Shown here: positions 7,513 through 40,426 of the stretch, piece by piece
Layout of the letters: every line of letters begins with the position of its first letter
Numbering within the stretch: the first letter of the stretch is position 1
Assembly: GCA_964583685.1 (NCBI GenBank)
Contig: CAZOVJ010000002.1
Location: 45,055-109,054, forward strand
Source: an uncultured Gammaproteobacteria bacterium
Lineage (GTDB): Bacteria > Patescibacteriota > Microgenomatia > UBA8517
Direction of reading: 5' to 3'
Length of the DNA: 64,000 nt
Notes under the pieces: generated by a model
Told to the model about the DNA's origin: nothing
What the model saw: only the letters and a program-made list of their open reading frames with translations
Databases searched by the model: none
Position numbers and translations under genes: made by a program

Positions 7513-7650
7513 GGTTATGGGTTCGGAAGGTTCTAGCCCGGTATGCTCAGCCGAATTGGATACCTTTTTCATACTGTCTCACTTGTACTTTTATGGTAAA
7601 TTAGGAGTTATGGAGTTGTAAGGATAAAACAGGTCTAGGCCAGCTTACTC
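7513..7650 (+). repeat. Island repeat family, first copy: R-module (7513-7552), L-module (7565-7590), degenerate R-module (7626-7650)
   Basis: ggttatgggttcggaaggttctagcccggtatgctcagcc, then tttttcatactgtctcacttg, then caggtctaggccagcttactc. Confidence 0.7.
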
Positions 7651-7881
7651 TTTAATTACTTCGCAGTTATAGTGAATGAAGCTTAGTCTCATCAAACTCA
7701 TTATTTGAATGTTAATTCCAGAATTGGAAGCCTCGGGAGGGAAAATTTAAAGTAATATAAGCTTTTGTGCTTACATTGTCCTTCATTTTCTAAATCCCTC
7801 CCGAGGAGACCCGTGTAAAAGATTATTGATTCGAGTTGCTTATAACTCTTATCAACTTTTAACCTCCTACCCGAGTCTCCC

Positions 7882-9864
7882 CTACTGTTTCTCTTCAACA
7901 ACCTTACCGTCCTTTATTACAATCACCCTGTTAGCCATCTTTGCAAACTGCTCGTCGTGAGTGATAACCACCAAGGCTTTACCTTGCTGTCTGAGATCTT
8001 GAATCAACTTAGCCACCTTCAACATAGCAGCTGAGTCAAGACCAATTGTGGGTTCATCCAACACCAAAGTTGTAACAGCTGTGTTGCAGGACGCTATGGC
8101 CAACATTCTTACATCTGAAGGGTGCAGGTCCAGCGGACAAGTCAAAGGATTCAAACCTGTCCATTCAAGACCCCCCCTAACAAAGGCATCTGTATCCGAT
8201 TCAGACCACCCCAAGATCTTTGGACCAAAGCTAAGTTCTTCTTCAACAATCATGGCAGTTATCTGCAAAGCCGCATGTTGGAAAACGTAGCCCACCTGAC
8301 CCACCGTTTCTACCGTACCTTTAGCTGGTTTTATGGCACCAGCCAGGGTAAGCATGGCAGTTGTTTTGCCTGAGCCGTTGGGTCCCATAATGGCAACAAC
8401 CTCTCCCTCTTTCAAGGTAAGATCAATGCCTTTAAGGATTTCGTTTCCCTCGAGGGCTACATATACACCGTTCATTCGGGCAACAACATCGCCCAAGTCA
8501 CTTTTGGGATACTTCTCCGGCTGGTCTACAAGGTTGCAACGAGATAGCCACTCGTCGCTATTGAAGAAATTGTTTGGACTAAGGTCTGCCGTAAGTTTCC
8601 CCTCCTCTAGAACATAGACTCTATCAGTAAATCTAGCCAACTCTTGCCAAAATGGGTCGGCTATCACTACAGTGCAAGCTTGTTTGGACCGCAAGATACT
8701 GAGCGCTTCCATAAAGTCAACTCTACCCTGAGGATCAAGCTCCTGCATGGGCGAGTCCAGTAAAAGTGTCTTTGCCCCAGAGACCAAAGCTCCAGCCAAC
8801 ACCAGTCGTACTTGTTCACCGCCGGATAGCTTCGTTGTCTCACGATCCCACAACTCACCAATCCCCATAGTATCTAGAGCTTCTTTGGCTTCTTTCTCAT
8901 CTTTAGCTAAAAAAGAAATCTCTTGTCCCACTGTAAGACCGTATATTGAAGCAAAAGGATCTGGTGCAACATAGCGGGCAAAGCTGCATAAGGCAGACAA
9001 CGGTATCTCGTGGGCAAGCTTACCCGAAACCAATACCCCGCCTTTAAGCCCTCCCATAATCCAGGGAACGACCCCACCCATCACTCTTAAAAGAGTCGTC
9101 TTTCCCGCCGCATTCTTACCAGCGAGATAGACAAATTCGCCTGACCTAATGGTTAGACTTATGTCTTCAAGAACATCCGGAAGTCCAGGAGAATAACGAG
9201 CAAAGACATTCTTAAGTTTAATGTCTCCTTCCATCTGGCTTTCTTCTGTGTGGTGAGATTGAAAAGCAAGTGTTGCTTGCTGGGAATTTACTATAATCCG
9301 AGGGATGATGGCTACTGCCAAGGGCACAAGATTTTTAATATTGGCCCTAATTGAATCCCATCGTAAACCTCGGATAATTAGTGATTGAGTAAGGGCAACA
9401 AATTCCCGTCTGAGTATTTGTATGCCCCGCAAAATCCCTAAAGCCCATGTTCTTATGGGTTTAATCCAAGCAATCCCCCGATACATCTCTGGCGCCGGTG
9501 TTGAAAACAACCAGGCGAACGAGATCAACATCACCCCAGCAAGTCTTGAGCCGGTAACCAAACCGCGTTCTATTCCCACTGAATTGATTGTAAAGACAAA
9601 CCAGTGAATCCCACCGTACTCAGGGGGTGAAAGTATGGCGTTGTAAAGAAACACCATCCCGCCTGAGACTGGCGCAGCCAGAGCCAATTTCCAGTTCCTG
9701 TTGCTATTAGCAAGAAACAAAAGCAACCCTACTACTAGAAGGGAAATGGCTCCTGTTACGTTATTTATAAAGATAAACAACAGGCTCACTGTGAACACTA
9801 TGGCGAATCTCAATTCTGGTGGGAGAACACCTAAACCGAAACCTCTCTTTCTATTTGAGAACAT
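7882..9864 (-). CDS. ECF transporter, fused T component (EcfT/CbiQ-like) plus duplicated ATPase domains (EcfA-EcfA')
   Basis: N-terminal multi-TM region followed by two Walker A motifs (GKNAAGKTT and GPNGSGKTT) with LSGG signatures. GC is about 50 % or higher. Confidence 0.75.
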   Translation of the reverse strand: MFSNRKRGFGLGVLPPELRFAIVFTVSLLFIFINNVTGAISLLVVGLLLFLANSNRNWKLALAAPVSGGMVFLYNAILSPPEYGGIHWFVFTINSVGIERGLVTGSRLAGVMLISFAWLFSTPAPEMYRGIAWIKPIRTWALGILRGIQILRREFVALTQSLIIRGLRWDSIRANIKNLVPLAVAIIPRIIVNSQQATLAFQSHHTEESQMEGDIKLKNVFARYSPGLPDVLEDISLTIRSGEFVYLAGKNAAGKTTLLRVMGGVVPWIMGGLKGGVLVSGKLAHEIPLSALCSFARYVAPDPFASIYGLTVGQEISFLAKDEKEAKEALDTMGIGELWDRETTKLSGGEQVRLVLAGALVSGAKTLLLDSPMQELDPQGRVDFMEALSILRSKQACTVVIADPFWQELARFTDRVYVLEEGKLTADLSPNNFFNSDEWLSRCNLVDQPEKYPKSDLGDVVARMNGVYVALEGNEILKGIDLTLKEGEVVAIMGPNGSGKTTAMLTLAGAIKPAKGTVETVGQVGYVFQHAALQITAMIVEEELSFGPKILGWSESDTDAFVRGGLEWTGLNPLTCPLDLHPSDVRMLAIASCNTAVTTLVLDEPTIGLDSAAMLKVAKLIQDLRQQGKALVVITHDEQFAKMANRVIVIKDGKVVEEKQ

Positions 9865-9936
9865 TTTCCTCTCCCTTCCCTAAGGGAAATAGAGGAGACG
9901 GGTAGTGGTACTATCCGTCTCCCAGATCCGCATATC

Positions 9937-10698
9937 TCACTTGGCTATTCCGGCATCTCGTAATCGTTGGGTGTACATTGGTAGTAGGAATAGACCCAAG
10001 ATGGCAGAGACACTGTCTCCCATAAACCACCCTATTCCTGGATCAACCAGTGCCGCTGCAAACGGTTTCCCACCAACGGTTGCACCGATCGCGCCAATCA
10101 ATGCGCTTACCAGGCATATCAAGACGACGATAAGCAGAGCAGGTAGGAAATGTCGCGGGTTAAGCTCTAACCCCCCAAGCAGCAAACGTGCCCCAACTAC
10201 AAGCACTGCCAAGGGAATTAGAAATCCCCAGGGCATTACTAAGTTGAGGGATATGTTCAACAAACCTGCTGCTAAAACCAGGAGGGTCAAAATCATGACC
10301 CGAACGGCTCCGGTCAACACGTCAGATGGTTTCTTTGCCCCCAAAGTTGGATCGATTTTGAAGGCGGTGAACAGGAGAGCGGGCAACGCTGCGTTTGCGA
10401 GGCCGCCGGCAATTGGGTTCATGATAATATCCACGATACCCCAACCGCCGTACGCCAAAATTCCTGCCGCATAGGCTCCCAACCCCGCGGCTAGACAACC
10501 ATACCAAGGCCCCAGCCAGATGCCGGCAACAAGCTGCAAGGCCGCCGGAAGCCAGATAAAACTGGCTCCTTTGACAGTTGGCGATGATCCTACTGTCATC
10601 ATCACCCAGCCGATGGCGGCAATAGCCACGGCCATGCCGATAGTAAACATAAGTCGCAGTGCCGGGTCGCGCCTAACGACATATTCCGAAGTAGTCAT
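9937..10698 (-). CDS. ECF transporter substrate-specific (S) component, Gly/Ala-rich 6-TM protein (substrate unknown; folate-family is a guess from context)
   Basis: Hydrophobic small-residue-rich integral membrane protein directly upstream of the EcfT/A/A' gene; high GC. Confidence 0.5.
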   Translation of the reverse strand: MTTSEYVVRRDPALRLMFTIGMAVAIAAIGWVMMTVGSSPTVKGASFIWLPAALQLVAGIWLGPWYGCLAAGLGAYAAGILAYGGWGIVDIIMNPIAGGLANAALPALLFTAFKIDPTLGAKKPSDVLTGAVRVMILTLLVLAAGLLNISLNLVMPWGFLIPLAVLVVGARLLLGGLELNPRHFLPALLIVVLICLVSALIGAIGATVGGKPFAAALVDPGIGWFMGDSVSAILGLFLLPMYTQRLRDAGIAK

Positions 10699-10869
10699 TG
10701 GATCTTCTCCTTATTTGAACTTAGATCTATCGGACGGTTGGACACAAGTTTGCATAGAGCCTCCTTATTTGAAACAGCAGAGGAAGAAAACAGCCACATA
10801 GAAGTGACTATCTTTTCCCTCCACTGCTTCCAGTTCTGAAATCACTATTTAAATTTAATTGTTAATGTG

Positions 10870-11610
10870 CTAATTACCTTTTTGCATATTTCTTAATTCA
10901 GGAAGCAAAGAAATACTTTCAAATAGACGTGGATCCAGACGTTCCCAGTAAATCCCCTTCGGCTTTTGCTGGGTTTCTGAAACACGAATGAGGCGGCTAG
11001 GGGTAATAATAATGTCACAGAGAGTATCAAAAGGTTCTACTTGAAGTTCGTTCTCTGTCACTTGACAATCATGAACAAAAGCCACCACGGGTGTTTCCTC
11101 GCCAACCATACCTATTTCCCTCATCATTGCCCACTCAATATCGAAAAAGCCATGGCCCTTGCCATACCTCACTCCATTGATGCTTATAACAGATGCGCCA
11201 GTTATCAAAAAGTCAATTTCCCCTAACTTCTGAATGTCGGCAAGGGTTAATCTCTCCCCGAAACGCTCCATGCCATCCAATGAAGAAGCGTAGTTTTCTT
11301 GCCCTTGAGGCACCATTCCTCTCTCAAGCAAAATCATTCCACGACGAATACCATAAGTCGGCACAATCGCTTGTTTTGAATCTCGAATACTCTGGCTTCG
11401 TATCCCTTCTAAACAATTATCGGGTGTTATCAGTATCCGCTTTGATTCTCTATAAAGATCGAGATCCAATAAATGAGTCAGTGCCTGGTCACTCCCTTCA
11501 AAATCCGGGATAAATTCGGCAAAATTAAGATGATACCTACTGTCTGGCCTGGCAACCAGCGATAGCTGCTCCCAGACCCGCTCTCTTATCGTATCCCTTT
11601 CAGTTCTCAT
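10870..11610 (-). CDS. 5-formyltetrahydrofolate cyclo-ligase family protein
   Basis: GVRYGKGHGFFD matches the MTHFS G-G-G-YD motif. Confidence 0.6.
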   Translation of the reverse strand: MRTERDTIRERVWEQLSLVARPDSRYHLNFAEFIPDFEGSDQALTHLLDLDLYRESKRILITPDNCLEGIRSQSIRDSKQAIVPTYGIRRGMILLERGMVPQGQENYASSLDGMERFGERLTLADIQKLGEIDFLITGASVISINGVRYGKGHGFFDIEWAMMREIGMVGEETPVVAFVHDCQVTENELQVEPFDTLCDIIITPSRLIRVSETQQKPKGIYWERLDPRLFESISLLPELRNMQKGN

Positions 11611-11644
11611 TTTTAATCTCTTTCAGATATTCTTTATAAAACAA

Positions 11645-11680
11645 AAATCCTGCTTAAAGCAGGACAAACTAGTGTCTTTA
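11645..11680 (-). terminator. Rho-independent terminator downstream of the PRTase gene
   Basis: Perfect hairpin tcctgctt-taa-agcagga, followed on the minus strand by a T-run. Confidence 0.55.
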
Positions 11681-11789
11681 TAAAACAAAAAAAATGTTTC
11701 TTGTTGACTGCCATTCTATTAACAAAACTTTCCTGCGGCAAACAGGTTATTATTCTGTAATTTCAGACTATAAGGTTTTAATTTTTATG

Positions 11790-13036: not shown

Positions 13037-13040
13037 GGCC

Positions 13041-13303
13041 TTTTTTTTATACTGTCTCATTCGTCTCACTTCAACTTTGCTAAGTGTTATAACATTCAGC
13101 CTCGAGCGTGACTTGGGAGTAAAGAAAAAATGGCTAGAGAAAGCAATTATTTTTAGAAGGTATGTAGATGATAAAAATGCAATCCCAAAAAACTTAAACT
13201 GGGGAAAGTGTGAAAAAGGTACAAAAATAGGAAGTATTGTGTAATTAGTACAATATGCCGTTAGTTATAATGATAGAAAGGTTCTAGACCGACCTGCTCA
13301 GCC
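13041..13303 (+). repeat. Island repeat: L-module (13041-13124) and R-module (13264-13303) separated by a 140-bp AT-rich insert
   Basis: ttttttttatactgtctcattcgtctcac...agcctcgagcgtga...ggagtaa // gttataatgatagaaaggttctagaccgacctgctcagcc. Confidence 0.75.
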
Positions 13304-13472
13304 AAATTGAGCACCCATATGTAGCCCATGTCTCTAGAAAATCCCATGTTTTCTATCAAAACGGCTATTTTTCTTTCAAACATTCGTACCACACGCTCAA
13401 TGTCCGTATAAATCCCCTAGTATTGACTGAGATAACCTTGAATGTTATATTGACGCACTGCCAATAACAAAC

Positions 13473-14402: not shown

Positions 14403-14651
14403 TGTTTTCTAAACGAAAAAAGATTGAAAAGCCAAAGGCGAGTGTGGGTGAAACAACCCACGCTGTAGTTGAAACTTCAATAAAACTAGCTAAAAAGTCG
14501 AAAAAGAAATGGGAATTTTTTCGAAGCAAACCTTCAGGAAATAAACTTTCATTGTGGTTTAAGTACTAGTAATAGGCGTTATTATTGTACCCCCCAACCG
14601 CACGTAAGTTACGACGAGAACACTCAGTGTAAACGTTTCTGGTAAAATTAG

Positions 14652-15293
14652 ATGAGTTATAAGGATATAAAGGTCCTAGCCCGGCCTGCTCAGCACCACT
14701 TTTTAACCTCAAAAAACTTTATTAAACCGAACAACCCCATCTGGGATTCGAAACCTCTCCCTGCTGTGCAATGTTTAGATACAAACCGGGTATGGTATAC
14801 TCACACTCAAACAATGACAGAACGACCATTTGAATCTCCTGAATTTGAGAAAAGAGCAGAGGCTTTTATTGAAGAAGTTCGAACTGAAACTCAGTCAAAC
14901 GATGATTCTCGGTATCGTCAGGTAAGTAGTGTTAGGGTGGGCAAGTATCTTCCAGGGGCAATTAGAGGTCTGGATAAGTTACAATCTTTAGTTGATTATG
15001 CCAAAACAGAGTTTACCCTTAGACCTCGCTACCTGTCGGATGTGTATGATATAAAATCTGCAAACTCGTGTGTTGTTGAGTTTAGTGCAACATTTAACTC
15101 AAGACGCGCTCTTGGTAGGTTTGTAGAAAGAATACTGCAAATAGCCGAGGCCCACGGGGGACAAATAGATGAAACAATACTCCCTTTACTGACTACTGTT
15201 AGAGAAGATGATTATATTAGAGCACAGCGAGGTAACTATGGTTACCATTTTCGTACTTTGCTCTTTTTCGAGTTTTCCAGCTCTGCCGAGTGA
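14652..15293 (+). CDS. Hypothetical protein; the true start is probably the in-frame ATG at 14814, because the first 40 codons overlap the repeat R-module
   Basis: ORF; the in-frame Met at 14814 (MTERPFESPEFEKRAEAF...) lies downstream of the repeat. Confidence 0.45.
   Translation: MSYKDIKVLARPAQHHFLTSKNFIKPNNPIWDSKPLPAVQCLDTNRVWYTHTQTMTERPFESPEFEKRAEAFIEEVRTETQSNDDSRYRQVSSVRVGKYLPGAIRGLDKLQSLVDYAKTEFTLRPRYLSDVYDIKSANSCVVEFSATFNSRRALGRFVERILQIAEAHGGQIDETILPLLTTVREDDYIRAQRGNYGYHFRTLLFFEFSSSAE
14656..14694 (+). repeat. Island repeat R-module
   Basis: gttataaggatataaaggtcctagcccggcctgctcagc; it overlaps the annotated 5' end of ORF 14652. Confidence 0.7.
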
Positions 15294-15425
15294 ATAACTT
15301 ATATCATTCCTCATTAGTTTGCATAAGAATGGAGAAACTGTTGTGATTACTGGTAAACTAATTCAGGATAAGGAATAATTTCTGTCCAGTTTGCAGTTCG
15401 GAAATCGTCAGGTAGTGCCAGCACT

Positions 15426-15465
15426 TTTTTTATACTGTCTCATCTCTTCAACTTTTACGTCCACA
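15426..15465 (+). repeat. Island repeat L-module (solo), preceded by the small hairpin agtgc-ca-gcact
   Basis: tttttttatactgtctcatctcttcaacttt. Confidence 0.65.
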
Positions 15466-15960: not shown

Positions 15961-15967
15961 AAATCTC

Positions 15968-16062
15968 TTTTTTATACTGTTTCATTTGTCTCAATTAGCT
16001 TCGATTATGATACACTTGGAGTAATTGATTATGGGCTCGAAAGGGTCCAGACCTACCTGCTT
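15968..16062 (+). repeat. Island repeat: compact L+R element
   Basis: ttttttatactgtttcatttgtctcaattagcttcgattatgatacacttggagtaattgattatgggctcgaaagggtccagacctacctgcttgc. Confidence 0.75.
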
Positions 16063-16093
16063 GCTAACTTAAACATTTAATCTGTTTAAAAAA

Positions 16094-16657
16094 ATGGTAG
16101 AAGATATTGTTAGTAAAATATCGGGTGAGCTTAGTAGAGGCATAGACTCTGAGCCTCAGGTACTTTATTTGCTTGTTGAAATTAGAAAAATAAGACAAGC
16201 GAATGTCGATCAAGCAAATTTAGGAAGTAGTAAAACATTCTTAGACTTTTACCGTGACTGGGCTTGTCATGTAGAGTTGACTCACAATGATGCCGTCGAA
16301 ACATTCCTTAACAGATTCGAGGTTCTAGTAAATCCAAGCTTAACAGCCCATGAAATAGCTAGAAGTTTTATTAGTCATTTCCCATCCTTTTTCAAGCTCG
16401 ACGAGTTGAGAAATGAACTAAGAGGTTTCTTTAAAGATAAGGAGTTAACAACTGAACTAACTGATGACCGGGGAAAATGGTATACGTTCGTCAAACATCT
16501 ATTAGGCATTCTAAAGAACTGCAGTATAAAGCGATTGCGTTCCAATGGAAAAATTGAGGAACTTACTTTAGAAGTCGATGGTCAAGGGAATGCAAAATTT
16601 AAATTTCGCCTTAGAGGAAGAAAAGATTGCCCCGTTTGTAAATTGAAATGGAAATAG
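16094..16657 (+). CDS. Hypothetical protein; distant paralog of the 28090-28560 product
   Basis: Shared blocks SEPQVLYLLVEIRKI / SEIQVVFILSKIRKL and FYRDWACHVELTH / FYCNWVLHNKIDR. Confidence 0.5.
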   Translation: MVEDIVSKISGELSRGIDSEPQVLYLLVEIRKIRQANVDQANLGSSKTFLDFYRDWACHVELTHNDAVETFLNRFEVLVNPSLTAHEIARSFISHFPSFFKLDELRNELRGFFKDKELTTELTDDRGKWYTFVKHLLGILKNCSIKRLRSNGKIEELTLEVDGQGNAKFKFRLRGRKDCPVCKLKWK

Positions 16658-16672
16658 TTCTAATGAGTCCCA

Positions 16673-16860
16673 AGAGTGTTACACTTGGAGTAATCGATTA
16701 TAGGCTCAAAAGGTTCTAGACCGGCCTGCTCAATTATCTGGGATTAAGAACCTCAGGCACGACGTCCAGTTATGAGGACAAGTTGGGTCTAGACCGACCT
16801 GCTTCAATTATTTCGGAATCAGAACCCTAAGCACAGTGTCCAATTATCAGGATTAGAAAA
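16673..16860 (+). repeat. Island repeat: truncated L-module plus two tandem R subunits (about 60-70 bp each)
   Basis: gtgttacacttggagtaatcgattataggctcaaaaggttctagaccggcctgctcaattatctgggattaagaacc...gggtctagaccgacctgcttcaattatttcggaatcagaaccc... Confidence 0.75.
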
Positions 16861-16949
16861 CTTTAGAACAAGGAGCTTCAGTTAAAAATTTAGCTAAAAT
16901 ATACCAAATTCGAAAATAAGATCCGAACTCTAGATTCAGGAATTTATAT

Positions 16950-18202: not shown

Positions 18203-18282
18203 CTCAATTTTCTCGGAATCAGAACCCTAGGCATACGGTCCAGTTATAAGGACTAAATTGATCTAGACCGAGGAGCTGCTAG
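18203..18282 (+). repeat. Island repeat R subunit
   Basis: gctcaattttctcggaatcagaaccctaggcatacggtccagttataaggactaaattgatctagaccgaggagctgc. Confidence 0.7.
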
Positions 18283-18360
18283 TAAAAAGTGATAATCCTG
18301 GGGCGTGAAGCTAATCCACACTTGGTGTGGGAAAGTGCCACATTTTTAACTTGCGATATT

Positions 18361-20010: not shown

Positions 20011-20125
20011 TTTGTTTCATTTGTCTCACTTCGCTTTGCTCAGTGTTATAACATTCAGCCTCGAACGTGATACAATCGGAGTAATCGGTTATGGGCTCGA
20101 AAGGTTCTAGACCGACCTGCTCAGC
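20011..20125 (+). repeat. Island repeat: compact L+R element
   Basis: tttgtttcatttgtctcacttcgctttgctcagtgttataacattcagcctcgaacgtgatacaatcggagtaatcggttatgggctcgaaaggttctagaccgacctgctcagc. Confidence 0.8.
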
Positions 20126-20155
20126 AATATAATCTTTTTGTTATAATACAAATAT

Positions 20156-22620: not shown

Positions 22621-22627
22621 CTTATCC

Positions 22628-23398: not shown

Positions 23399-23399
23399 G

Positions 23400-25905: not shown

Positions 25906-25907
25906 TT

Positions 25908-26459: not shown

Positions 26460-26460
26460 G

Positions 26461-26937
26461 ATGACAAGAGTAGCAATAAGAGCTGTCGCAGTTTTAGTAA
26501 AAGACGATAAAGTATTGCTTGTACACAGAACTCGTAATGGAAAAGAATTTTGGGTTTTTCCGGGTGGAGGAGTTGAGGAAGGCGAAAATGTAGAAGAAGC
26601 GGTCGTCCGTGAAGTGGAAGAAGAGGCAAGTACTAAATGTAAAATAGTTAAACTTCTTTATACCCATATCTACTCGAATTTAGGACATAAACAATTCTAT
26701 TACCTATGCGATTACATATCAGGAAACCCAAAATTAGGTGATTTTAATGAATTAGAGACAATGAAAAATGAAGATCAAACTTATGAACCGGGTTGGATAA
26801 AAATTGAAAGTCTATCCAAGAAATTAGTCTATCCTTTGGAAATTCGAGACTGGCTGATTGAAGATTATAGGACGGATTTCAAAAACACACCGAGAGCTGC
26901 AACCTTAAAATCCACCGAGCTTCGTCAAGAGTTATAA
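26461..26937 (+). CDS. NUDIX hydrolase (paralog B of 12560-13036)
   Basis: Nudix box GGGVEEGENVEEAVVREVEEEAST; 158 aa, the same length as paralog A. Confidence 0.8.
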   Translation: MTRVAIRAVAVLVKDDKVLLVHRTRNGKEFWVFPGGGVEEGENVEEAVVREVEEEASTKCKIVKLLYTHIYSNLGHKQFYYLCDYISGNPKLGDFNELETMKNEDQTYEPGWIKIESLSKKLVYPLEIRDWLIEDYRTDFKNTPRAATLKSTELRQEL

Positions 26938-26942
26938 ATTCC

Positions 26943-27229
26943 TTTTTTATACTGTCTCATTTGTCTCATTTAGCCTCAAGTGTGATACACTTTTGACAAG
27001 CGGTTACGGGTCGGGAAGGTTCGAAACCCACCTGCTCAATTATCCCAGAATAGTACGGTAAGTATGGGATCAAGTGGGTCCAGACCCGCATGCTCAATTC
27101 GCTGGGAATAGTACCGTAAGTATGGGATCAAGTGGTGGCAGACCGACCTGCTCAATTAGCTCGGATTAGGAACCCCAGGTTCGATGTCCAGATATGGGAC
27201 TGGAAGGGCCCAGACCGACCTGCTCAGCC
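26943..27229 (+). repeat. Island repeat: L-module followed by four tandem R subunits (59, 59, 71 and 22 bp)
   Basis: ttttttatactgtctcatttgtctcat...ggttcgaaacccacctgctcaatt.../ggtccagacccgcatgctcaatt.../ggcagaccgacctgctcaattagctcggattaggaaccccaggttcgatgtccagatatgggactggaag/ggcccagaccgacctgctcagcc. Confidence 0.85.
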
Positions 27230-27252
27230 AAGACGGGCAGGTGTGTGACCAC

Positions 27253-28089: not shown

Positions 28090-28560
28090 ATGAGATTGCA
28101 AATATTAGATAAATTAACAGTTGAGTTGAAAAAAGAAATTAAAAGTGAAATTCAAGTTGTTTTTATCTTGTCGAAAATTAGAAAATTATTGGAGTGGGAG
28201 AATGCAAAGGGCAGATATAAGATCCTAAACTTTTATTGCAATTGGGTACTTCACAATAAAATCGACAGGACAGAGCCAGTTGGAAAAATCTTAAGAGATT
28301 TTATTGTTAATAAAGCAGATCGGTATAAACTAGTTTTTCATGAAGAATTTAAAAAAGAATTTAGAAGATTTCTGAAAGATTACAATCTTCCCGTTTTGAG
28401 CCCGATTTCGATGGAAAAATTTAAAAACGAACTAAATAAGGCACTATCAGAGACTCCAGTCGAAATAGTTATAGGAACTCGTTACAGAATCAAACTTGGC
28501 GACCCTGAAGCTGCGAATTTGAATTATGTAATTGTTCCATTGAAGGAACCCAAGACCTAA
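28090..28560 (+). CDS. Hypothetical protein; distant paralog of the 16094-16657 product
   Basis: See the paralog blocks listed for 16094-16657. Confidence 0.5.
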   Translation: MRLQILDKLTVELKKEIKSEIQVVFILSKIRKLLEWENAKGRYKILNFYCNWVLHNKIDRTEPVGKILRDFIVNKADRYKLVFHEEFKKEFRRFLKDYNLPVLSPISMEKFKNELNKALSETPVEIVIGTRYRIKLGDPEAANLNYVIVPLKEPKT

Positions 28561-28573
28561 AGATCCTTTTAGC

Positions 28574-28619
28574 GGGTTCGGGTTATGGGCTCATAAGGGT
28601 CCTGACCTGTAAGCTCAGC
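28574..28619 (+). repeat. Island repeat R-module
   Basis: cgggttatgggctcataagggtcctgacctgtaagctcagc. Confidence 0.65.
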
Positions 28620-28669
28620 AAATATTTCAACTTGGATTCGAACTCTTACTCCATTAAAATATAATAAAT

Positions 28670-29239: not shown

Positions 29240-29358
29240 TAAAACTACGATATTAGGTCAAATTGAGGATTAACACAGGTTTGCTTGTTGTAAAATAGGT
29301 TCGAAGTCTGCCCCCTCCTTAGGCGGGCAGACATGGTTCGCAGCCTAAACTAAAATAA

Positions 29359-29766
29359 ATGAAGAGAATTTTACATAAACTTGGCTTGAGTCCGGATAAC
29401 TCTATCGTTATCGGCTCGGGTATTCTTGAAGCGCTTGGGATACGGAAAAGTAAAGATATAGATATCGTCGTGAATCAAGAGGCTTATGACTCTTTGAGAA
29501 AATCTGGACAGTTTAATGTCACAGAAAACCACGGCCGCGAAATCCTCCATGATGATAAATTTGAGATTGGAACAAGTTGGACTGTATTGGGCAAAACTTA
29601 CAGATTTAAGGATTTTATTGACGAATCAATAATTGTCGATGGTGTCAGATACATAACAATCAACTTTCTATACAGAGCAAAGAAGAGCTGGATTCGTAGA
29701 AAAAACGCTCGTCAGAAAGATATAGAAGACGTAAAGTTAATTGAGGCGTACCTGAGCAAATTATGA
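29359..29766 (+). CDS. Minimal nucleotidyltransferase (Pol-beta superfamily) domain protein
   Basis: GSGILEALG...SKDIDIVV resembles GSxxxG...SDxDL. Confidence 0.5.
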   Translation: MKRILHKLGLSPDNSIVIGSGILEALGIRKSKDIDIVVNQEAYDSLRKSGQFNVTENHGREILHDDKFEIGTSWTVLGKTYRFKDFIDESIIVDGVRYITINFLYRAKKSWIRRKNARQKDIEDVKLIEAYLSKL

Positions 29767-29775
29767 GAACCAGAA

Positions 29776-29873
29776 GGGTCTAGACCGTCCTGCTCAATTA
29801 GCTCGGATTAGGAACCCCAGGTTCGATGTCCAGATATGGGACTGGAAGGGCCCAGACCGACAAGCTCAGCCAG
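29776..29873 (+). repeat. Island repeat: two R subunits
   Basis: gggtctagaccgtcctgctcaattagctcggattaggaaccccaggttcgatgtccagatatgggactggaagggcccagaccgacaagctcagcc. Confidence 0.8.
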
Positions 29874-29884
29874 CATAAACATAA

Positions 29885-30616: not shown

Positions 30617-30632
30617 AATTGTATATAGGCCT

Positions 30633-30658
30633 AAAAGTTCTAGACCGATCTGGTCAGC
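30633..30658 (+). repeat. Island repeat R-module (short)
   Basis: aagttctagaccgatctggtcagc. Confidence 0.6.
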
Positions 30659-30678
30659 AAAACAAAGTCTTTTTAAAT

Positions 30679-33353: not shown

Positions 33354-33467
33354 TAATTTTATAAGGATAGAAAGGGACTAGACCGGGAAGCTCAATTAGC
33401 TCGGATTAGGAACCCCAGGTTCGATGTCCAGATATGGGACTGGAAGGGCCCAGACCGACAAGCTCAG
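33354..33467 (+). repeat. Island repeat: R-module with two subunits
   Basis: ttataaggatagaaagggactagaccgggaagctcaattagctcggattaggaaccccaggttcgatgtccagatatgggactggaagggcccagaccgacaagctcag. Confidence 0.8.
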
Positions 33468-33494
33468 TCAGTTACAAAACAGATTCCATAAATA

Positions 33495-34298: not shown

Positions 34299-34409
34299 TG
34301 CGGCAATTATATCCTATAGATTTAATGATAACAAGCACTTTATTCTAGAATCTTGTTTAATTTGCCGTTTTTACCTTATAGTAGTTTTAAAGAGGAAGGA
34401 TTCCTTTTA

Positions 34410-34448
34410 AGTTAAAATGACAGAAGGGTTCCAGACCGACATGCTCAG
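34410..34448 (+). repeat. Island repeat R-module
   Basis: gttaaaatgacagaagggttccagaccgacatgctcagc. Confidence 0.65.
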
Positions 34449-34620
34449 CTGAAATTCTAGCAATCGTTGACTGAGAGTGATATAATTTAGTTGTATGGAA
34501 GCAATCGCCAATCAATAAAGCGATTGCCTGGTAAGAGAATCTTGTTTCTTCGGAGCAGTAAAGATCTACAGACAGTCGCTTCATTTAGGCAGAGATGCTC
34601 CCTTAGAAGGGGTGAAAATA

Positions 34621-35126: not shown

Positions 35127-35165
35127 TCTGGATAAACTCTTGTGATTACTGTCCAGGTTTGACTA

Positions 35166-35204
35166 GATATGGGATTGAACGGGTCTAGACCGGGGAGTTC
35201 AGCC
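35166..35204 (+). repeat. Island repeat R-module
   Basis: atatgggattgaacgggtctagaccggggagttcagcc. Confidence 0.6.
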
Positions 35205-35216
35205 CAGCAGCTCACT

Positions 35217-35890: not shown

Positions 35891-36087
35891 TTAGCCTCGC
35901 ATTCTACGCCTTAAACAATAATTAGTAAAGAGTATCATTCCCCTATATAGATACCTCTAGGAGTTATAAAAGTTATTTAAAATTGCAGAAAGGTTGGAAC
36001 AACGCAGGGCTCAGTATTTGTGATAAAAAAAGTTCGAAGTCTGTCCCCTCCATAGACGGGCAGGCACTGTTCGCAGCAAGCTAAAAA

Positions 36088-36366
36088 ATGGGCGTTAAAA
36101 AGAACTGGTCTGGTTACGTTACAAAGAATAGTATTGCCCTTGATTTAGAGGAAGGTGTTTTCACTTGGGATGATCCAGGGCAGATTGCTGCTTCTCTTAA
36201 ACAATCAGCGGAAAACAGCTCAAGACGCAGGGCCTCTCCTTTTCAATCAGCCATGTCAATGTTGAATTTTTATATCAACCGGGCAGGAAAAAGACTGCCG
36301 CCGGAGAGAAGAAAAACTTTGGAACAGGCAAAAGTCGAATTACGAAAACTTTTTCAAAAATATTGA
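36088..36366 (+). CDS. DUF3175 family protein
   Basis: WSGYVTKNS...LDLEEGVF...SAENSSRRRASPFQSAMSMLNFYINRAG fits DUF3175. Confidence 0.55.
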   Translation: MGVKKNWSGYVTKNSIALDLEEGVFTWDDPGQIAASLKQSAENSSRRRASPFQSAMSMLNFYINRAGKRLPPERRKTLEQAKVELRKLFQKY

Positions 36367-36391
36367 ACGGGTCTAAACCGACCTGCTCAGC
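36366..36391 (+). repeat. Island repeat R-module (short)
   Basis: gaacgggtctaaaccgacctgctcagc. Confidence 0.6.
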
Positions 36392-36553
36392 TAGATTGGA
36401 AATCTTGGAACTCCTCCAGCCTAAAATCCCGTGAGTTCGCATATTTCTTTCATTAAAGCCCAATAAGATGTATAATATTGCTTGTTGCCTGCTTTAGGAT
36501 TCTTCTTTTCTCCCTAAAGGAAATATTATTGTTTTATCTGTGAAAGTTATTTT

Positions 36554-37726
36554 ATGAATCAAGTTACCAATTTTGACGTATTAATTGTTTACTCTGAAAA
36601 ACTCGCTAACAGTGCGAGTTCTGTGTCTGGAGACATCACCGCGCCTTTTCCTAAAGAGTCTAATAACGAAAGTTACAATTTAGTTTATGGTTACTTTCTA
36701 AAAACCTGTCGAAAAAATAAATTAAAAGCAGCCTTCACTACATCTGCTGATATTATTGGTGCTGGTTTAGTCAGAAGTTATTGGCTTTTCGAAAATAAAA
36801 CTTGGATAAAGATCCGAAAAACAGGCTTTTCTAAAATGATTTTTGACAAATTCTCCCCAACGAGTAAAAGCAGAAAAATGAAGCGTAATTTGCTTTTTTC
36901 TTCAAAACGAATCAGGCCGTTTAACGATCCATACCTTTTTGACCTTTGTTTTGATAAACAGAAAACCTATAAAATGCTAAATAATTTTTCTATACCCACA
37001 GTAACAATAGAAGATAGTACGAGACAAGGTGTTATAAAGGCGCAAAAGCTCCTAAAGGAAAAAATAGCCAAACATAAAAACAGAAGCGACTTCTCAGAAG
37101 AGGTGGTAATGAAGGATAGATTTGGAGCTGGCGGGTTAAATGTTTACAAATTCGGTAACGACCAGACTGAAATGATGATTGCCTCAGTAAAAAAGTATAA
37201 AAGTGTATCTTTTATCATCCAACCCTTTGTGAAATTTGATAAAGGTTTCAGCATTCAAAACTCTTCCAGATCAACCGACATAAGGCTGATATATTTAGGA
37301 CAAAAAATTGTTCAAACATACATAAGAATTGCCAAAAAAGGAGATTTTAGATGCAATGAGCACGCAGGTGGATTGCTAAAATATATATCCAAAAGCGAAG
37401 TTCCCTTGGAAATAACAGCGGTTTCTAAAAGTATAGCCAATACCTTGAATAAAAAGTCTTCGTTGTTTGCTCTTGATTTCATCGCGAGCAATGACGGTAA
37501 TATTTATCTTCTGGAAGCAAATACTGGACCGGGGTTGGATTGGAATTTATCAATCAAGGAAAACGAAATCGAAGCTAAGAAACTAATGAGAATAATTATA
37601 AAAGAAATAGTTAGACGGATTAGCTCGTCAAACAATACTTCTGAAAGAAAAGCTGTAGTAGCTACAGTAAATACTCCTATGATCAGCGAGTACCCAGTAT
37701 CACCAAATATATTAACAACGACATAA
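36554..37726 (+). CDS. ATP-grasp fold ligase (390 aa)
   Basis: VMKDRFGAGGLNVYKF (Gly-rich loop) and LLEANTGPGLDW (E-x-N catalytic region). Confidence 0.5.
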   Translation: MNQVTNFDVLIVYSEKLANSASSVSGDITAPFPKESNNESYNLVYGYFLKTCRKNKLKAAFTTSADIIGAGLVRSYWLFENKTWIKIRKTGFSKMIFDKFSPTSKSRKMKRNLLFSSKRIRPFNDPYLFDLCFDKQKTYKMLNNFSIPTVTIEDSTRQGVIKAQKLLKEKIAKHKNRSDFSEEVVMKDRFGAGGLNVYKFGNDQTEMMIASVKKYKSVSFIIQPFVKFDKGFSIQNSSRSTDIRLIYLGQKIVQTYIRIAKKGDFRCNEHAGGLLKYISKSEVPLEITAVSKSIANTLNKKSSLFALDFIASNDGNIYLLEANTGPGLDWNLSIKENEIEAKKLMRIIIKEIVRRISSSNNTSERKAVVATVNTPMISEYPVSPNILTTT

Positions 37727-37761
37727 ACTACTTAATTTTTATTAGTAGCTTGACACGTCTC

Positions 37762-37860
37762 CTTTTGTATACTGTCTTATTTATCTTATTCAGCCTCAGT
37801 TGTGATACACTCGGAGTAAGCAACTGTGGGCTCGAAGGGTTCTAGACCGATCTAGTCAGC
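37762..37860 (+). repeat. Island repeat: compact L+R element
   Basis: cttttgtatactgtcttatttatcttattcagcctcagttgtgatacactcggagtaagcaactgtgggctcgaagggttctagaccgatctagtcagc. Confidence 0.75.
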
Positions 37861-37931
37861 ACCAACTTCTCCTCAAGATAACTCTCATCCACCCTGGACG
37901 GTTAGAACCTAAAGATTATATCATGTAAGTA

Positions 37932-38760
37932 ATGAAATTAACTGTTTTAGTTGACAACAATACGTTTACAGATGAACATTTTTTAGGAGAACCTGGGTTG
38001 TGTTATTGGATAGAAACAGATGGCAAGAAGATTTTGTTTGATACGGGTTTTTCAGATGTTTATCTTAAAAATGCCAAAAAACTAAATATTGATTTATCTA
38101 ACACAGATTGCATTGTTCTAAGTCATGGCCACAATGACCATACAACCGGTCTGAAGAGCTTCCCCCATTCTTCTAAGAAAATTGATTTAATTTCTCATCC
38201 AGATTGTCTTTTTGCCTAAATATCTATCAGACGATTACTATATCGGTTCACCAGTTTCTAAAAAAGAAGCCGGTAAAAACTTCAACTATATTCAATCAAA
38301 AACACCCTATTTCATAACCCAAAATATTGCTTTTCTGGGAGAGATAAAAGAAAATTATGGTTTTGAGAAAAGAAAACCGATTGGTTTTATTATTAGAAAT
38401 AATGAGAAAGAAGACGACCTGTTATTTGATGATTCTGCATTAGCGGTTAGAACAAAAAGGGGTGTAGTAGTTGTGACAGGCTGTTCTCACTCTGGAATCT
38501 GCAATATTGTGGCAACAGCAAAAACGGTCTTTAATGTCAAAAATGTATACTCTGTTATTGGAGGATTCCATCTTAGAGGAAAATATAAAAAAAGACTAAC
38601 AAAGACAGTAGAAGTATTAAAGAAAGAAGTAAATGGACCTATTTACCCTGCTCATTGTTCAGATTTTAAAGCTAAATGTTTTCTCGCAAAACATTTAAGA
38701 ACAGAAGAAGTTTTTGTGAGTAAAATTATCAAGGCCGATGTGATCGAGCTAAGGAGATGA
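37932..38760 (+). pseudogene. MBL-fold metallo-hydrolase split by a frameshift near 38212-38219 (ORFs 37932-38219 and 38212-38760)
   Basis: HGHNDH motif in the first ORF, and the MBL C-terminal half (VVVTGCSHSG...GGFHL) in the second. They are adjacent, on the same strand, and 8 bp of reading frame overlaps. Confidence 0.55.
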
Positions 38761-39577: not shown

Positions 39578-39650
39578 GTCGGTCCAATTATATAATTTCT
39601 GCCTATTTAATTCATTGCTAAAGAGAAAAACTTTGCTTACACTTTAGCTA

Positions 39651-40325
39651 GTGGTTTATAGCCTGATTTTTTTCTTACAACTTTTAATTCTTTTCTTGCT
39701 CTCTCGTATTCTCATCCGCGAGCTTTCTGGGCTTTTTTACCGAGTGACTAAAAGTCGCAAGTGGACTGTTTATCTTTTGGCAATAATATTTTTACCGGGA
39801 ACATTCATTCACGAGGTCGCCCATTTTTTGGTGGCCCTGGGCCTCTTGGTTCCGGTAGGGCAAATTGAACTTTTACCAAAGATTGACAAAAATGACCAAG
39901 TCAAACTTGGAAGCCTCTCTGTTGGTAAAACCGACCCAATCAGAAAAACCCTTATCGGTATCGCGCCATTTATCTTGGGAACAACAATAATTCTTACAAG
40001 CCTTTACTGGACGACAACAAATAACCTGACCGAAAACCCCCTGGTCCTAGTTTTGATCGGCTATCTTGTTTTTCAAATCGCAAACACGATGTTTGCCAGT
40101 AAAAAAGATTTAGAAGATGCATGGAAGCTTATTGTTATTTTTATGGCCCTTTACGCAATTTTATATTTCCTGGGCCTTCGCCTCCCATCCATCAACCCAA
40201 ATACACTTTTTTCAAATGAACTCATCGAGCTTGTTAAAAAAGCAAACATATTCTTACTGGTCCCCCTCGCCCTCGATTTTGTCATCATCATTTTTCTCAA
40301 ATCCCTCCAGTACTTAACACTTTGA
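39651..40325 (+). CDS. Polytopic membrane protein with an HEXXH motif (putative membrane metalloprotease-like)
   Basis: HEVAHFLVA sits in a TM context; 5-6 predicted TM helices. Confidence 0.4.
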   Translation: MVYSLIFFLQLLILFLLSRILIRELSGLFYRVTKSRKWTVYLLAIIFLPGTFIHEVAHFLVALGLLVPVGQIELLPKIDKNDQVKLGSLSVGKTDPIRKTLIGIAPFILGTTIILTSLYWTTTNNLTENPLVLVLIGYLVFQIANTMFASKKDLEDAWKLIVIFMALYAILYFLGLRLPSINPNTLFSNELIELVKKANIFLLVPLALDFVIIIFLKSLQYLTL

Positions 40326-40408
40326 AAGAATATCTTCTTTTAAGAAGAACAGGAGGTAAAAGAGCTAATTCTAATAAGAGTATTGTTTTGTTAAAATTAG
40401 ATTTATAT

Positions 40409-40426
40409 CAGTCGCCTGCTCAGCCA
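40409..40426 (+). repeat. Last degenerate copy of the island repeat R-end
   Basis: cagtcgcctgctcagcc. Confidence 0.4.

Follow-up and report, generated by a model that had tools for sequence, protein, structure and literature searches.

A polar array of putative mobile gene units at the 3′ end of a tRNA-Gln gene in the candidate phyla radiation

In the stretch of DNA analysed here (64 kb, the window), the region 6885-40426 is probably a polar array of mobile gene units, or "cassettes", assembled at the 3′ end of a tRNA-Gln(CTG) gene that anchors it (6813..6884, + strand; found by ARAGORN, 62.9 bits with the Rfam tRNA model). As a rule a unit holds a single gene; a short leader, in many cases with a −10-like box of its own, comes before it, and a 3′ tag, whose invariant part is the core of a repeat, the R-module, comes after it. 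In its behaviour the array resembles an integron-style site of gene capture, one with no integrase in the vicinity. A first-pass annotation of this DNA had suggested a cassette array delimited by an attC-like repeat; the cassette reading is supported, and the attC analogy is not. That annotation was aware of no description of the element, and we find no published one either.

An nhmmer profile of R finds 21 copies in the window at E<1e-3, all on the + strand and spanning 7493-37863, with 19 of the 21 cores intergenic. These are the approximately 20 same-orientation, mostly intergenic copies first noticed between tRNA-Gln and gltX (44821-46101), the latter on the far flank of the array. Three weak copies (7615, 18236 and 33953) fall below threshold. 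All copies and remnants lie within 7493-40426, on the tRNA-Gln-distal side, and none is found by nhmmer in the ~31 kb outside the array (1-7400 and 40500-64000); they are not scattered between core genes. Exact or near-exact core and L-module patterns have no match in 100 dinucleotide shuffles. The array extends over ~33 kb downstream of tRNA-Gln in mostly single-gene units, with a median R-to-R spacing of 938 nt. Pfam agrees with the cassette-type cargo proposed earlier: three NUDIX genes, an APH, an AadA-like nucleotidyltransferase, an MBL-fold protein, hydrolases and many unknowns. The rule of one gene per unit holds for the modal content, which is one ORF, and fails for the R-to-R units 7556-13302, with four or five minus-strand genes, and 20126-27040, with a YcaO cluster. 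Some multi-gene units include opposite-strand genes, which counts against a simple cassette picture. The repeat keeps the orientation of the array beside genes on the other strand, both in the window (18204, 20013, 34396) and in the related loci L016, L036 and L053.

The conserved part of R is a 23-nt core, GGTYCYAGACCGRCCTGCTCAGC, at its 3′ end. This core resembles the 3′ end of tRNA-Gln, a point absent from the first-pass annotation: the core and the last 23 nt of the gene (GGTTCGAATCCnnnnCCCGCAGC) have the same length and the same ends, and match at 14 of 23 positions. R is often followed by CCA. The perfect 10-bp palindrome described earlier (GGTCTAGACC) is present in some copies only, and the consensus is imperfect (GGTTCTAGACC / GGTCCTAGACC). 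The L-module is an optional 5′ extension, absent from three quarters of R copies, with sites at 13040, 15423, 15965, 26940 and 37760 (repeat family D8) and a variant at 20013. We recover all three forms that had been reported for L and R: contiguous, split and solo. Many copies start within 0-30 nt of an upstream stop codon on the same strand.

Reading from the tRNA gene, with all features on the + strand and E values from nhmmer, the first unit has its left junction at the 3′ end of tRNA-Gln (...GGTTCGAATCCCTGCCCCGCAGC), holds ORF 6990-7466 and is closed by R copy 1 (7493..7555, E=3.8e-13). Directly 3′ of a NUDIX gene (12560-13036), an L-module (13039..13122, full-length model) lies ~130 nt from its own R (13256..13307, E=1.5e-11), after which comes a degenerate copy (13305-13350) of a hairpin element found behind tRNA-Gln in other genomes. 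Beyond an R copy (14644..14697, E=5.2e-10) and a solo L-module (15423..15454, D8, 75% identity), a contiguous L+R (15962..16065, full-length model E=1.1e-28) follows a TspO gene (15502-15960). A degenerate L plus R (16623..16738, family D2, E=8.8e-15) overlaps the end of ORF 16094-16657, and beside it stand two tandem short R-type mini-units, the second degenerate (16745..16888, E=2.1e-5, family D7). Between two minus-strand genes there is a degenerate mini-unit or R in array orientation (18204..18288, family D7, 75%, only E=0.27 with nhmmer). An insertion variant of L plus R (20013..20127, full-length model E=3.1e-22) has 0 mismatches to the pattern made from the consensus R of the first-pass annotation. 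Another contiguous L+R (26936..27040, full-length model E=1.2e-27) follows the NUDIX gene 26461-26937, and is succeeded by three tandem mini-units of 58, 58 and 72 nt, every one of them closed by an R core (27038..27231; E=7e-12, 2e-9 and 5e-14). The R copy at 28558..28623 (E=1.2e-9) begins at the stop codon of ORF 28090-28560. At the position expected for R before the unit 29356-29796 we find an element like the tRNA-Gln 3′ end (GGTTCGAAGTCTGCCCC...hairpin...TTCGCAGC; 29285..29344, family D11; tRNA likeness judged by eye). An R copy and a single 72-nt mini-unit closed by R (29759..29874; E=1.6e-8 and 4.8e-13) precede the AadA-like gene (29885-30616), which has an R copy after it (30624..30661, E=1.8e-7). 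A second pair of R copy and 72-nt mini-unit ending in R (33359..33473; E=2.3e-6 and 3.4e-13) is followed by R copies at 34396..34452 (E=4.7e-10) and 35151..35206 (E=1.8e-9), and by a second D11 element (36018..36077, 83% identical to the first). The R copy over the stop codon of a DUF3175 gene (36362..36396, E=1.6e-8) is the left boundary of a complete unit (36394..37862) that comprises a leader with a TATAAT box, an ATP-grasp gene (36554-37726) and a contiguous L+R (37757-37862). A last, truncated R remnant (CAGTCGCCTGCTCAGCCA; 40403..40426; relaxed pattern search and sequence) forms the distal end of the array.

What is conserved in the repeat is its primary sequence and not a structure. RNAalifold finds essentially no covariation in R on either strand, mutual information gives no paired columns, and the consensus fold energy is −3.0 kcal/mol for the + strand and −0.1 for the − strand. 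The sole RNAalifold stem sits in the L-module, and it varies by one-sided transitions that keep G-U pairs. R has no inverted-repeat hairpin and no hairpin plus T-run, and the repeat has no match in Rfam even at E<=10. An attC-type bulged hairpin, as the first-pass annotation had suggested, is rejected for this linear conserved sequence, in which we agree that the canonical GTTRRRY/RYYYAAC integron cores are missing. We also reject the suggested MITE-saturated region: the repeat has no terminal inverted repeats, and its copies share one orientation and are confined, not dispersed.

The comparison set consists of 165 related loci retrieved with the exact consensus pattern, a retrieval biased towards young copies close to the consensus, which may make both the conservation and the association with GIY-YIG genes given below look stronger than they are. 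We find 271 further R copies in 155 loci from genomes of the candidate phyla radiation (CPR) and metagenomes. Every copy is on one strand in 66 of the 66 loci with at least two copies. The tRNA-bearing loci have tRNA-Gln in 30 of 34 cases, and in all 30 loci containing it the R copies lie downstream of the tRNA-Gln, in its orientation; six more loci, found independently by protein look-up, have the same layout. The R consensus is common to Saccharibacteria, Woesebacteria, Shapirobacteria and Paceibacterota, and is not copied from the tRNA-Gln end of each genome. Two observations go beyond the first-pass annotation: the element family is spread across the CPR, and tRNA-Gln is a conserved anchor, not a chance neighbour. 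The cargo of the related loci and the window consists of accessory genes such as NUDIX, methyltransferases, GNAT, HD, HEPN and hydrolases.

R marks the boundaries of units: the region is a row of gene units set apart by a single family of oriented repeats, and unit plus repeat recurs elsewhere with different neighbours. In an all-against-all blastn comparison, 51 of 382 downstream homology ends lie within −2 to +2 nt of the R 3′ end, with 0-5 in the neighbouring bins, and homology stops at the core 3′ end in 28 distinct locus pairs. Upstream ends are more diffuse, which counts against the cassette reading. The ATP-grasp unit recurs at 82-85% nucleotide identity in L041 and L063 among other neighbours, with homology ending directly after ...CTGCTCAGC. 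The unit 29356-29796 is common to the window, L075 and L105; R ends bound it in the latter two, and in the window it is preceded by the D11 element in place of R. A 374-nt CxxCxxCC unit has 91-97% identity in five contexts, with a constant left boundary between CTCAGC and AGAGTAGAAA and a right boundary directly after CTGCTCAGC. Among copies otherwise 96% identical, the last 12 nt of R vary more than the remainder, so that a crossover could lie inside R. The tRNA end and the R end are equivalent as unit junctions: one unit adjoins the 3′ end of tRNA-Gln in L088 and L036 and an R end in L071 and L152. The comparison across genomes for presence or absence of units gives one clean empty/occupied pair, with unit(s) present or absent beside the tRNA. 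In L165, tRNA...CGCAGCCA runs directly into AACAGGACACC; in L033, R...GCTCAGCCA runs into AATAGGACACC, and the two flanks are 98.7% identical over 2.2 kb. An apparent strain-level difference in L181-L186 is rejected as a gene-calling artefact.

Units would enter and leave exactly at the 3′ edge, either of the tRNA end or of R, by way of a free-unit intermediate and a cut within CAGC(CA). The tRNA end would be the primary chromosomal site, analogous to attI, and each R, carried along with its unit, a secondary site analogous to attC. Entry of new units beside the tRNA, pushing older ones distally, would keep every R in the orientation of the tRNA. Integrons and CALINs (arrays with no integrase) likewise are polar arrays of mostly single-gene accessory units with a fixed chromosomal entry point and one site per unit at its 3′ end, the unit boundary being the 3′ edge of the site. 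They differ in that attC is an imperfect hairpin of 57-141 bp that has R''/L''-L'/R' boxes and RYYYAAC/GTTRRRY cores, whereas the site here is 23 nt long and would be recognised as linear sequence. Integron entry is at attI beside intI; here it would be at a tRNA gene end, with no IntI found nearby. Also unlike integrons, at least some units have their own promoter-like box, by eye (TATAAT for the ATP-grasp unit and TATGAT for the CxxCxxCC one).

Tycheposons, the tRNA-anchored additive islands of Prochlorococcus (bioRxiv 10.1101/2020.12.28.424599), provide a published model for an alternative that we regard as improbable: the array would be debris of successive integrase-carrying elements (of tycheposon, genomic-island or prophage type) in tRNA-Gln, with R as relic att sites and the units as decay remains. 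Those islands also extend outwards from a particular tRNA gene, on its 3′ side, by tRNA-proximal entry, with direct repeats related to the tRNA end between successive insertions, and both the anchoring and such entry are compatible with debris here. So are the D11 elements, the true partial tRNA-Gln copies that adjoin the tRNA in L150 and L181, and L190, which repeats the tRNA end plus flank. Tycheposons, however, carry a tyrosine or serine recombinase, replication genes, several kb of cargo and true partial tRNA copies, whereas the units here are of ~1 kb (~0.9 kb with one gene), with no recombinase or replication module found and a repeat consensus common to CPR classes, not that of each genome's tRNA-Gln end. 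Neither the window, where Pfam searches bear out the lack of an integrase noted at first pass, nor the ~1,200 ORFs of the 165 loci contain any intact or recurrent tyrosine or serine recombinase motif or family. The constant boundaries of the CxxCxxCC unit argue against this alternative, as does the search for R in 2.9 million viral contigs, with 0 matches.

Slightly less probable again is a selfish-repeat origin, in which a RAYT-like Y1 transposase has spread R, and L above all, in the manner of REP/REPIN or MITE sequences until they saturated a hypervariable region, with homologous recombination between copies reshuffling the units. REP/BIME repeats and IS200/IS605 ends are likewise short, oriented and intergenic. 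A conserved Y1_Tnp gene (PF01797) stands next to R in L038 and 3.7 kb away from the array in L181-186, and also occurs in L004 and L155. Hairpins of its own flank the gene (TAGCCTCRCAAGG-N5-CCTTGYGAGGCTA), and their 5′ foot, CATTTAGCCTCAA, shares an identical 13-nt stretch with the L-module. HUH enzymes (IS200/IS605, RAYT) recognise one side and cut at a fixed distance, and the junctions fit this geometry, with one-sided recognition, no target duplication and strict orientation. But REPs typically spread genome-wide, whereas R keeps to one locus and one orientation, delimits genes, has no conserved hairpin and mostly stands without L, and the units have no left-end hairpin. Nor is Y1_Tnp consistently near arrays: there is none within 10 kb in L187 and L189, and three genes per ~1 Mb of R-bearing DNA is the chance expectation for a single-copy gene. 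Homologous recombination cannot account for insertion at the tRNA end, because the identity is only 14/23. Least probable is that R is an RNA-level signal (a 3′-UTR, processing or stability element, or tRNA-like 3′ end) marking the ends of transcripts from the tRNA-Gln side, with unit boundaries following transcript boundaries: the nearby stop codons, the tRNA-like end with CCA and the G-U-keeping stem in L fit it, and the lack of structure, terminator or Rfam match, the orientation kept beside other-strand genes and the movement of units between genomes, which it leaves unexplained, do not.

If the array is one of mobile units, the catalyst would act in trans and would not be a linked integrase. 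Xer-dependent modules (IMEX elements, pdif modules) also lack an integrase, rely on a recombinase encoded by the host and pile up in tandem at a single chromosomal site, but their sites are dif-like 11-6-11 sites, in alternating orientation for pdif, whereas R sits at a tRNA gene and has no 11-6-11 architecture. A RAYT-like HUH (Y1) enzyme, a weaker lead than the nuclease described next, or an unlinked tyrosine recombinase may be alternative catalysts. The leading candidate, ranked first by genomic association, is a 90-aa GIY-YIG nuclease, assigned to UPF0213 (with PDB 1zg2 and 1ywl by sequence). It is strongly associated with arrays, as the largest neighbour family and commonest unit (34 genes in 32 of 155 loci, 33 of them co-oriented with R), and has no gene in the window. 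This nuclease might cut at the conserved junction, with host repair or ligation then giving directional cut-and-paste or homing; against this, nucleases of the GIY-YIG type act as hydrolases and not as recombinases. Free-standing GIY-YIG homing endonuclease genes (phage T4 seg/mob, I-TevI family) similarly are small genes beside a conserved target, which here would be the tRNA-Gln end or R, and the 70-80% identity of the protein across distant hosts is as expected of a mobile selfish gene. Unlike them, it comprises the catalytic domain alone (residues 3-76 of 90 by Pfam), with no DNA-binding domain, which leaves unexplained how 23 bp would be read. We know of no homing endonuclease genes that form arrays of unrelated cargo units. 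The CNNNG motif at the junction (CTCAG / CGCAG) recalls the I-TevI cleavage motif, a weak resemblance. Independent look-ups of the GIY-YIG protein place it 55 nt to 4.6 kb from tRNA-Gln in four of the four informative cases.

A profile of the R-module, the repeat that closes each gene unit of the array, finds 21 copies at E<1e-3 on the + strand between 7493 and 37863, and the last copy, at 40403-40426, is truncated. The repeat family reported in the first-pass annotation is thus real and placed as described there. R is absent both from the 7 kb that precede tRNA-Gln (6813-6884) and from the 23 kb beyond 40.5 kb, whose core genes include gltX, asnS/aspS, relA, recJ, miaA and the RNase P RNA, and the repeat patterns have zero matches in shuffled sequence. 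The L-module, an optional 5' extension of R, is found at six sites, in the contiguous, split and solo forms already distinguished. When 255 distinct copies, from inside and outside the window, are aligned, the invariant part of R is the 23-nt core at its 3' end, GGKYCYAGACCGRCCTGCTCAGC, with more than 90% conservation at most positions; the three bases after the core are weakly constrained, and the approximately 10 nt before it moderately so (TTATRRGRnYnRAAA). About a quarter of the copies carry the L extension (TTTTTTATACTGTCTCATTTGTCTCATTTAGCCTCAAG...), and insertions between L and R result in elements of 81-157 nt. The repeat consensus has a T-rich/TATACTGTCTCA start and ends in CCTGCTCAGC. 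The perfect palindrome GGTCTAGACC assigned to the R-module is present, but in some copies only, and the single-gene units describe the commonest content of the array, yet several window units hold more than one gene.

The suggestion that L+R units fold into attC-like bulged hairpins fails on both strands. For 26 long L+R copies, RNAalifold reports -3.0 kcal/mol on the + strand and -0.1 kcal/mol on the - strand, with a compensatory change in 1 pair among 16, and mutual information over the 255 R copies identifies no complementary column pairs. Because neither strand keeps a fold and covariation is essentially absent, the conservation of the repeat is one of primary sequence, which favours direct protein recognition and disfavours an attC-like hairpin or a structured RNA.

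Related loci (designated by L numbers) were retrieved by an exact degenerate 21-mer of the consensus, and therefore conservation and associations are skewed towards consensus-like copies; most of these loci are short metagenome contigs. The 21-mer matches genomes of Woesebacteria, Shapirobacteria, Microgenomates, Saccharibacteria and Paceibacterota, as well as several low-GC MAGs labelled Gammaproteobacteria and syntenic with the window. Eight low-GC contigs with an array of the candidate-phyla-radiation (CPR) type, some of them syntenic with the window (L004, L005, L024, L025, L033, L041, L044 and L058), bear the record label 'uncultured Gammaproteobacteria', probably a wrong taxonomic assignment. 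At least 120 contigs match in a metagenome scan, all of them low-GC, and the R pattern has no match in 2.9 million viral contigs. Beyond the window, we count at least 271 further copies in at least 155 loci. Among the matches listed, all copies share a single strand in 66/66 loci with two or more copies. The cores are mostly intergenic (234/267), and the R-to-R spacing has a median of 938 nt, with one ORF as the commonest content.

ARAGORN finds tRNAs in 34 of all loci, and in 30 of these 34 there is a tRNA-Gln (CTG or TTG), always upstream of the R copies and on the same strand (30/30). The same layout is repeated in L180-L186, loci found independently via protein look-up. The upstream side of tRNA-Gln has a conserved core synteny (Lon, YkuD, sometimes PAP2/DAGK), also present in the window. 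Aligned with the R consensus, GGTTCTAGACCGACCTGCTCAGC, the last 23 nt of the window tRNA-Gln, GGTTCGAATCCCTGCCCCGCAGC, match it at 14/23 positions, both termini included, amongst them GGTTC, the CC of the T-arm and the terminal C.CAGC; a CA often follows both. From this agreement we infer that R is a mimic or a derivative of the tRNA-Gln end. R keeps its own consensus across lineages, and true partial copies of tRNA-Gln are limited to L150, L181 and the D11 elements, a family of repeats similar to the 3' end of tRNA-Gln.

The same unit recurs in different arrays, bounded at the 3' edge of the repeat, in 28 distinct locus pairs (counting those whose sequences are unrelated for 60 nt or more past the R 3' end), as expected for the cassettes proposed in the first-pass annotation. 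One unit, of 374 nt and encoding a CxxCxxCC protein, appears in five contexts with 91-97% identity and both junctions constant. In an all-against-all blastn comparison, 51/382 downstream alignment ends fall within -2..+2 nt of the R 3' end, versus 0-5 per adjacent bin. Upstream, the ends scatter more widely, in part since alignments extend into the preceding R. The ATP-grasp unit (window 36394-37862) has 82-85% DNA identity to parts of L041 and L063, where the neighbour genes differ; its homology ends on the right exactly after ...CTGCTCAGC, and its left limit is a few nt past the preceding R of the window. These shared boundaries show that units travel with their tag. They place the crossover at CAGC(CA) or a few bases off, and it may sit inside the last 12 nt of R, because near-identical copies vary most there.

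In L088 one unit directly adjoins the 3' end of tRNA-Gln, and in L071 that unit lies between two R copies; a unit encoding a GIY-YIG protein adjoins the tRNA in L036 and follows an R in L152. The only clean empty/occupied pair, which also bears on the comparison of unit presence or absence among relatives suggested in the first-pass annotation, is L165 and L033. These two loci have a common 2.2-kb flank (98.7% identity) that joins the tRNA in L165 (..CGCAGCCA, then AACAGG..) and an R in L033 (..GCTCAGCCA, then AATAGG..). On this alignment, the pair is a presence/absence polymorphism of at least one tRNA-proximal unit with its junction at the conserved end. Plain homologous recombination is disfavoured for this pair because the tRNA end and R have too little common sequence. 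As junctions, the tRNA end and the R end are interchangeable. Strain-level cassette differences in L181-L186 are seen in the gene tables, but the DNA is colinear and they are a gene-calling artefact.

We propose that tagged units would enter and leave site-specifically at the 3' edge of tRNA-Gln or of any R, with the tRNA-Gln end as the primary site, and that their insertion and removal would be catalysed in trans; the free unit would be an intermediate, and the enzyme and its chemistry are likewise putative. No recombinase is found by Pfam and NCBIfam amongst about 70 window ORFs (all the sizeable ones), which bears out the reported lack of an integrase; the 64-kb window has neither recombinase nor transposase, and an IntI / attI / Pc head is absent, the head of the array being tRNA-Gln. 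Regular expressions for tyrosine and serine recombinase motifs have 0 matches in 1,213 ORFs of related loci, and none of the 45 recurrent ORF clusters near arrays is a recombinase. A bulk Pfam search of 300 representative ORFs has no recombinase family with two or more members among the 25 largest families listed; a single recombinase could stay hidden, because those are the families with most members. We regard an unlinked tyrosine or serine recombinase as a possible catalyst, on the unlikely side.

By far the commonest neighbour is a 90-aa GIY-YIG protein (PF01541, UPF0213 family), with 34 genes in 32 loci. The gene shares the orientation of R and often begins 16-140 nt past an R or the tRNA end; in some cases an R of its own follows 32 or 174 nt further on. 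Clustering at 90% identity divides the family into more than 1,800 clusters, and its members are 70-80% identical between CPR classes. In 4/4 informative look-ups by protein, the gene is beside tRNA-Gln, including where the consensus R is absent, either as the first downstream unit or 3-17 nt upstream on the same strand. The upstream placement is seen in L019, L150/L153, L188 and L190, and a placement 55-200 nt downstream in L036, L174, L181 and L192; copies placed upstream seem to have diverged further than those of the cassette type. A GIY-YIG homing system would likewise have an ORF beside its candidate target, as in the related loci, but this protein has no DNA-binding domain and consists of the catalytic domain only. 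The window has no GIY-YIG gene. Cutting initiated by GIY-YIG and completed by host repair or ligation is a tentative candidate for the catalysis, about as likely as an unlinked recombinase.

An HUH enzyme would be a somewhat less likely catalyst. A gene for a RAYT-like HUH transposase (Y1_Tnp) lies 3.7 kb from the array in L181-L186 and beside R in L038, and also occurs in L004 and L155; its linkage to arrays is inconsistent across loci, the window has no such gene, and the 62 kb surrounding Y1_Tnp genes contain 0 R copies. Hairpins of its own bracket the gene, and 13 nt of their foot match the L-module, not R. These hairpins, TAGCCTCRCAAGG-N5-CCTTGYGAGGCTA, are at L181 5328-5360, L188 10697-10727 and the Y1_Tnp flanks in L187 and L189. 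The protein has more than 7,600 homologues, with 65-79% identity across Microgenomates, and together with the bracketing hairpins it is an apparent REP/RAYT pair in CPR bacteria. Mobility of the IS200/IS605 type fits the junction anatomy, but the left ends of units have no common motif and there is no transposase inside the units. A catalyst of some other kind we consider about as likely as an HUH enzyme. The full proposal, a CPR-wide platform in which an integrase-less, integron-like array at tRNA-Gln undergoes directional cut-and-paste by a candidate GIY-YIG (or a domesticated HUH) enzyme cutting the 23-nt tRNA-mimic sites, is possible but speculative.

The nearest published model is the tycheposon (bioRxiv 10.1101/2020.12.28.424599). 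Like such tRNA-anchored additive islands, the array lies 3' of one specific tRNA gene; unlike them, it has no element-borne integrase, and its repeats do not appear to be simple tRNA copies. Compared to an integron or a CALIN (an attC cluster lacking an integrase), the array functions likewise but without attC structure, cores or IntI. The hallmark of attC is an imperfect hairpin formed by a single strand through paired R''/R' and L''/L' boxes; RNAalifold and mutual information find no such paired-box hairpin here, and the consensus has no RYYYAAC/GTTRRRY motif, in agreement with the initial description. The alternative of a MITE-saturated region does not hold, as the two L+R ends are unrelated and there is no target duplication at the junctions. 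A REP/REPIN reading of R is set aside, with no conserved hairpin and with copies kept to the array in the window and to the downstream side of tRNA-Gln elsewhere. A known RNA or terminator is rejected for lack of a conserved hairpin and of any Rfam match to the repeat (at the gathering threshold and at E<=10, the window matches tRNA-Gln and RNase P alone), and an uptake-signal or Chi-type genome-wide motif because the copies are confined to the array. A full-text literature search returned no description of the array or the repeat, and there is a realistic chance that the array mechanism is new.

CPR bacteria have tiny genomes with few recognised mobile elements, and their exchange of accessory genes is poorly understood. 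If our reading is true, a single chromosomal site from Saccharibacteria to Microgenomates would serve the gain and loss of single genes and would be a searchable marker of flexible genes, and the 23-nt tag could serve to pull cassettes out of metagenomes, in the way attC does for integrons. It would also point to a role for the UPF0213 GIY-YIG proteins, which are widespread, or for enzymes of the RAYT type, and a catalyst other than an integrase would mean a new route to gene-cassette arrays.

The cargo in the window includes an ECF/ABC transporter, 5-FTHF cyclo-ligase, a PRTase, three NUDIX hydrolases, an SDH-type protease, TspO, an M20 peptidase, a MutS2-like protein, APH, two histidine phosphatases, a methyltransferase, a P-loop kinase, an AadA-like nucleotidyltransferase, an ABC-2 exporter, an alpha/beta hydrolase, DUF2188, DUF3175, two ATP-grasp enzymes, a split MBL-fold gene, a YcaO-nitroreductase cluster with a Cys-rich 78-aa ORF, and many unknowns. 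The cargo of related arrays ranges from methyltransferases, GNATs, HD and HEPN proteins and hydrolases to a heliorhodopsin. The YcaO cluster (22628-25009, - strand) is TOMM-like and lies inside one large R-to-R unit, with a nitroreductase-family protein, a YcaO cyclodehydratase and the 78-aa ORF, which could encode the precursor peptide. The overlapping features at 37932-38219 and 38212-38760 are probably a frameshift or a pseudogene.

Mini-units, gene-less units of 58-72 nt with an R-core end, occur in tandem at 27038-27231, 29801-29872, 33399-33470 and 16745-16888, and also in L011 and L058, and they recur, 83-89% identical, at three positions of the window and in further genomes. The inner copies of a tandem terminate in GCTCAATTA and the final one in GCTCAGCCA. 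For the tandem mini-units, a structured RNA, a ribozyme or type III antitoxin repeats are rejected (no Rfam match, no covariation), and folds of single sequences do not surpass those of shuffled ones (z from -2.4 to +1.8). A tRNA or tRNA-like gene is rejected for both R and the mini-units: ARAGORN and the Rfam tRNA model are negative, and acceptor and T stems cannot be drawn. A CRISPR-like mini-array at 27002-27230 is dismissed because entire units are repeated (family D12), not merely a repeat part.

The D11 elements at 29285-29344 and 36018-36077 occupy expected R positions. They resemble the T-arm and acceptor 3' end of tRNA-Gln with a hairpin between, and end in TTCGCAGC; their opposite strand has weak 20-aa tblastn matches to the GIY-YIG N-terminus (E about 0.2-0.9). 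A conserved hairpin element, GGGCACCCCAGTGACCGAGGTGCCTCGAAAAGCCC, comes right after tRNA-Gln-CCA in L019, L051, L099, L140, L148, L165 and L168 and after R in L023 and L031, and is also at window 13305-13350. Another motif that recurs after the junction is TTCGACTC...CGCTCACAGCYRTAGCC. Second copies of tRNA-Gln (partial or degenerate, or the 3' end plus flank) lie just downstream of the functional gene in L181 (9727-9890), L182-L186, L150 and L190 (3378-3424 / 6340-6386).

In the window, the promoter and 5' half of tRNA-Gln, to the anticodon stem, are duplicated with 91% identity (3280-3372 versus 6750-6842). The 3.4 kb between the half copies hold four - strand genes: PgeF-like, a cytidylyltransferase, a 415-aa ORF and a pyrophosphatase fragment. 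The arrangement looks like a second, different type of insertion into the same tRNA gene. L145 has a pyrophosphatase homologue on the array side of tRNA-Gln. The 415-aa ORF (4952-6199) has no match in Pfam, NCBIfam or PDB; it has five homologue clusters, one in a cell-envelope gene context, and its AlphaFold model (pLDDT 50) is too poor for a fold search. Finally, window 10755-10847, intergenic between two - strand genes, has a long hairpin score on both strands and a chance Rfam match to a miRNA family (E 0.08-0.5), and may be a bidirectional terminator.
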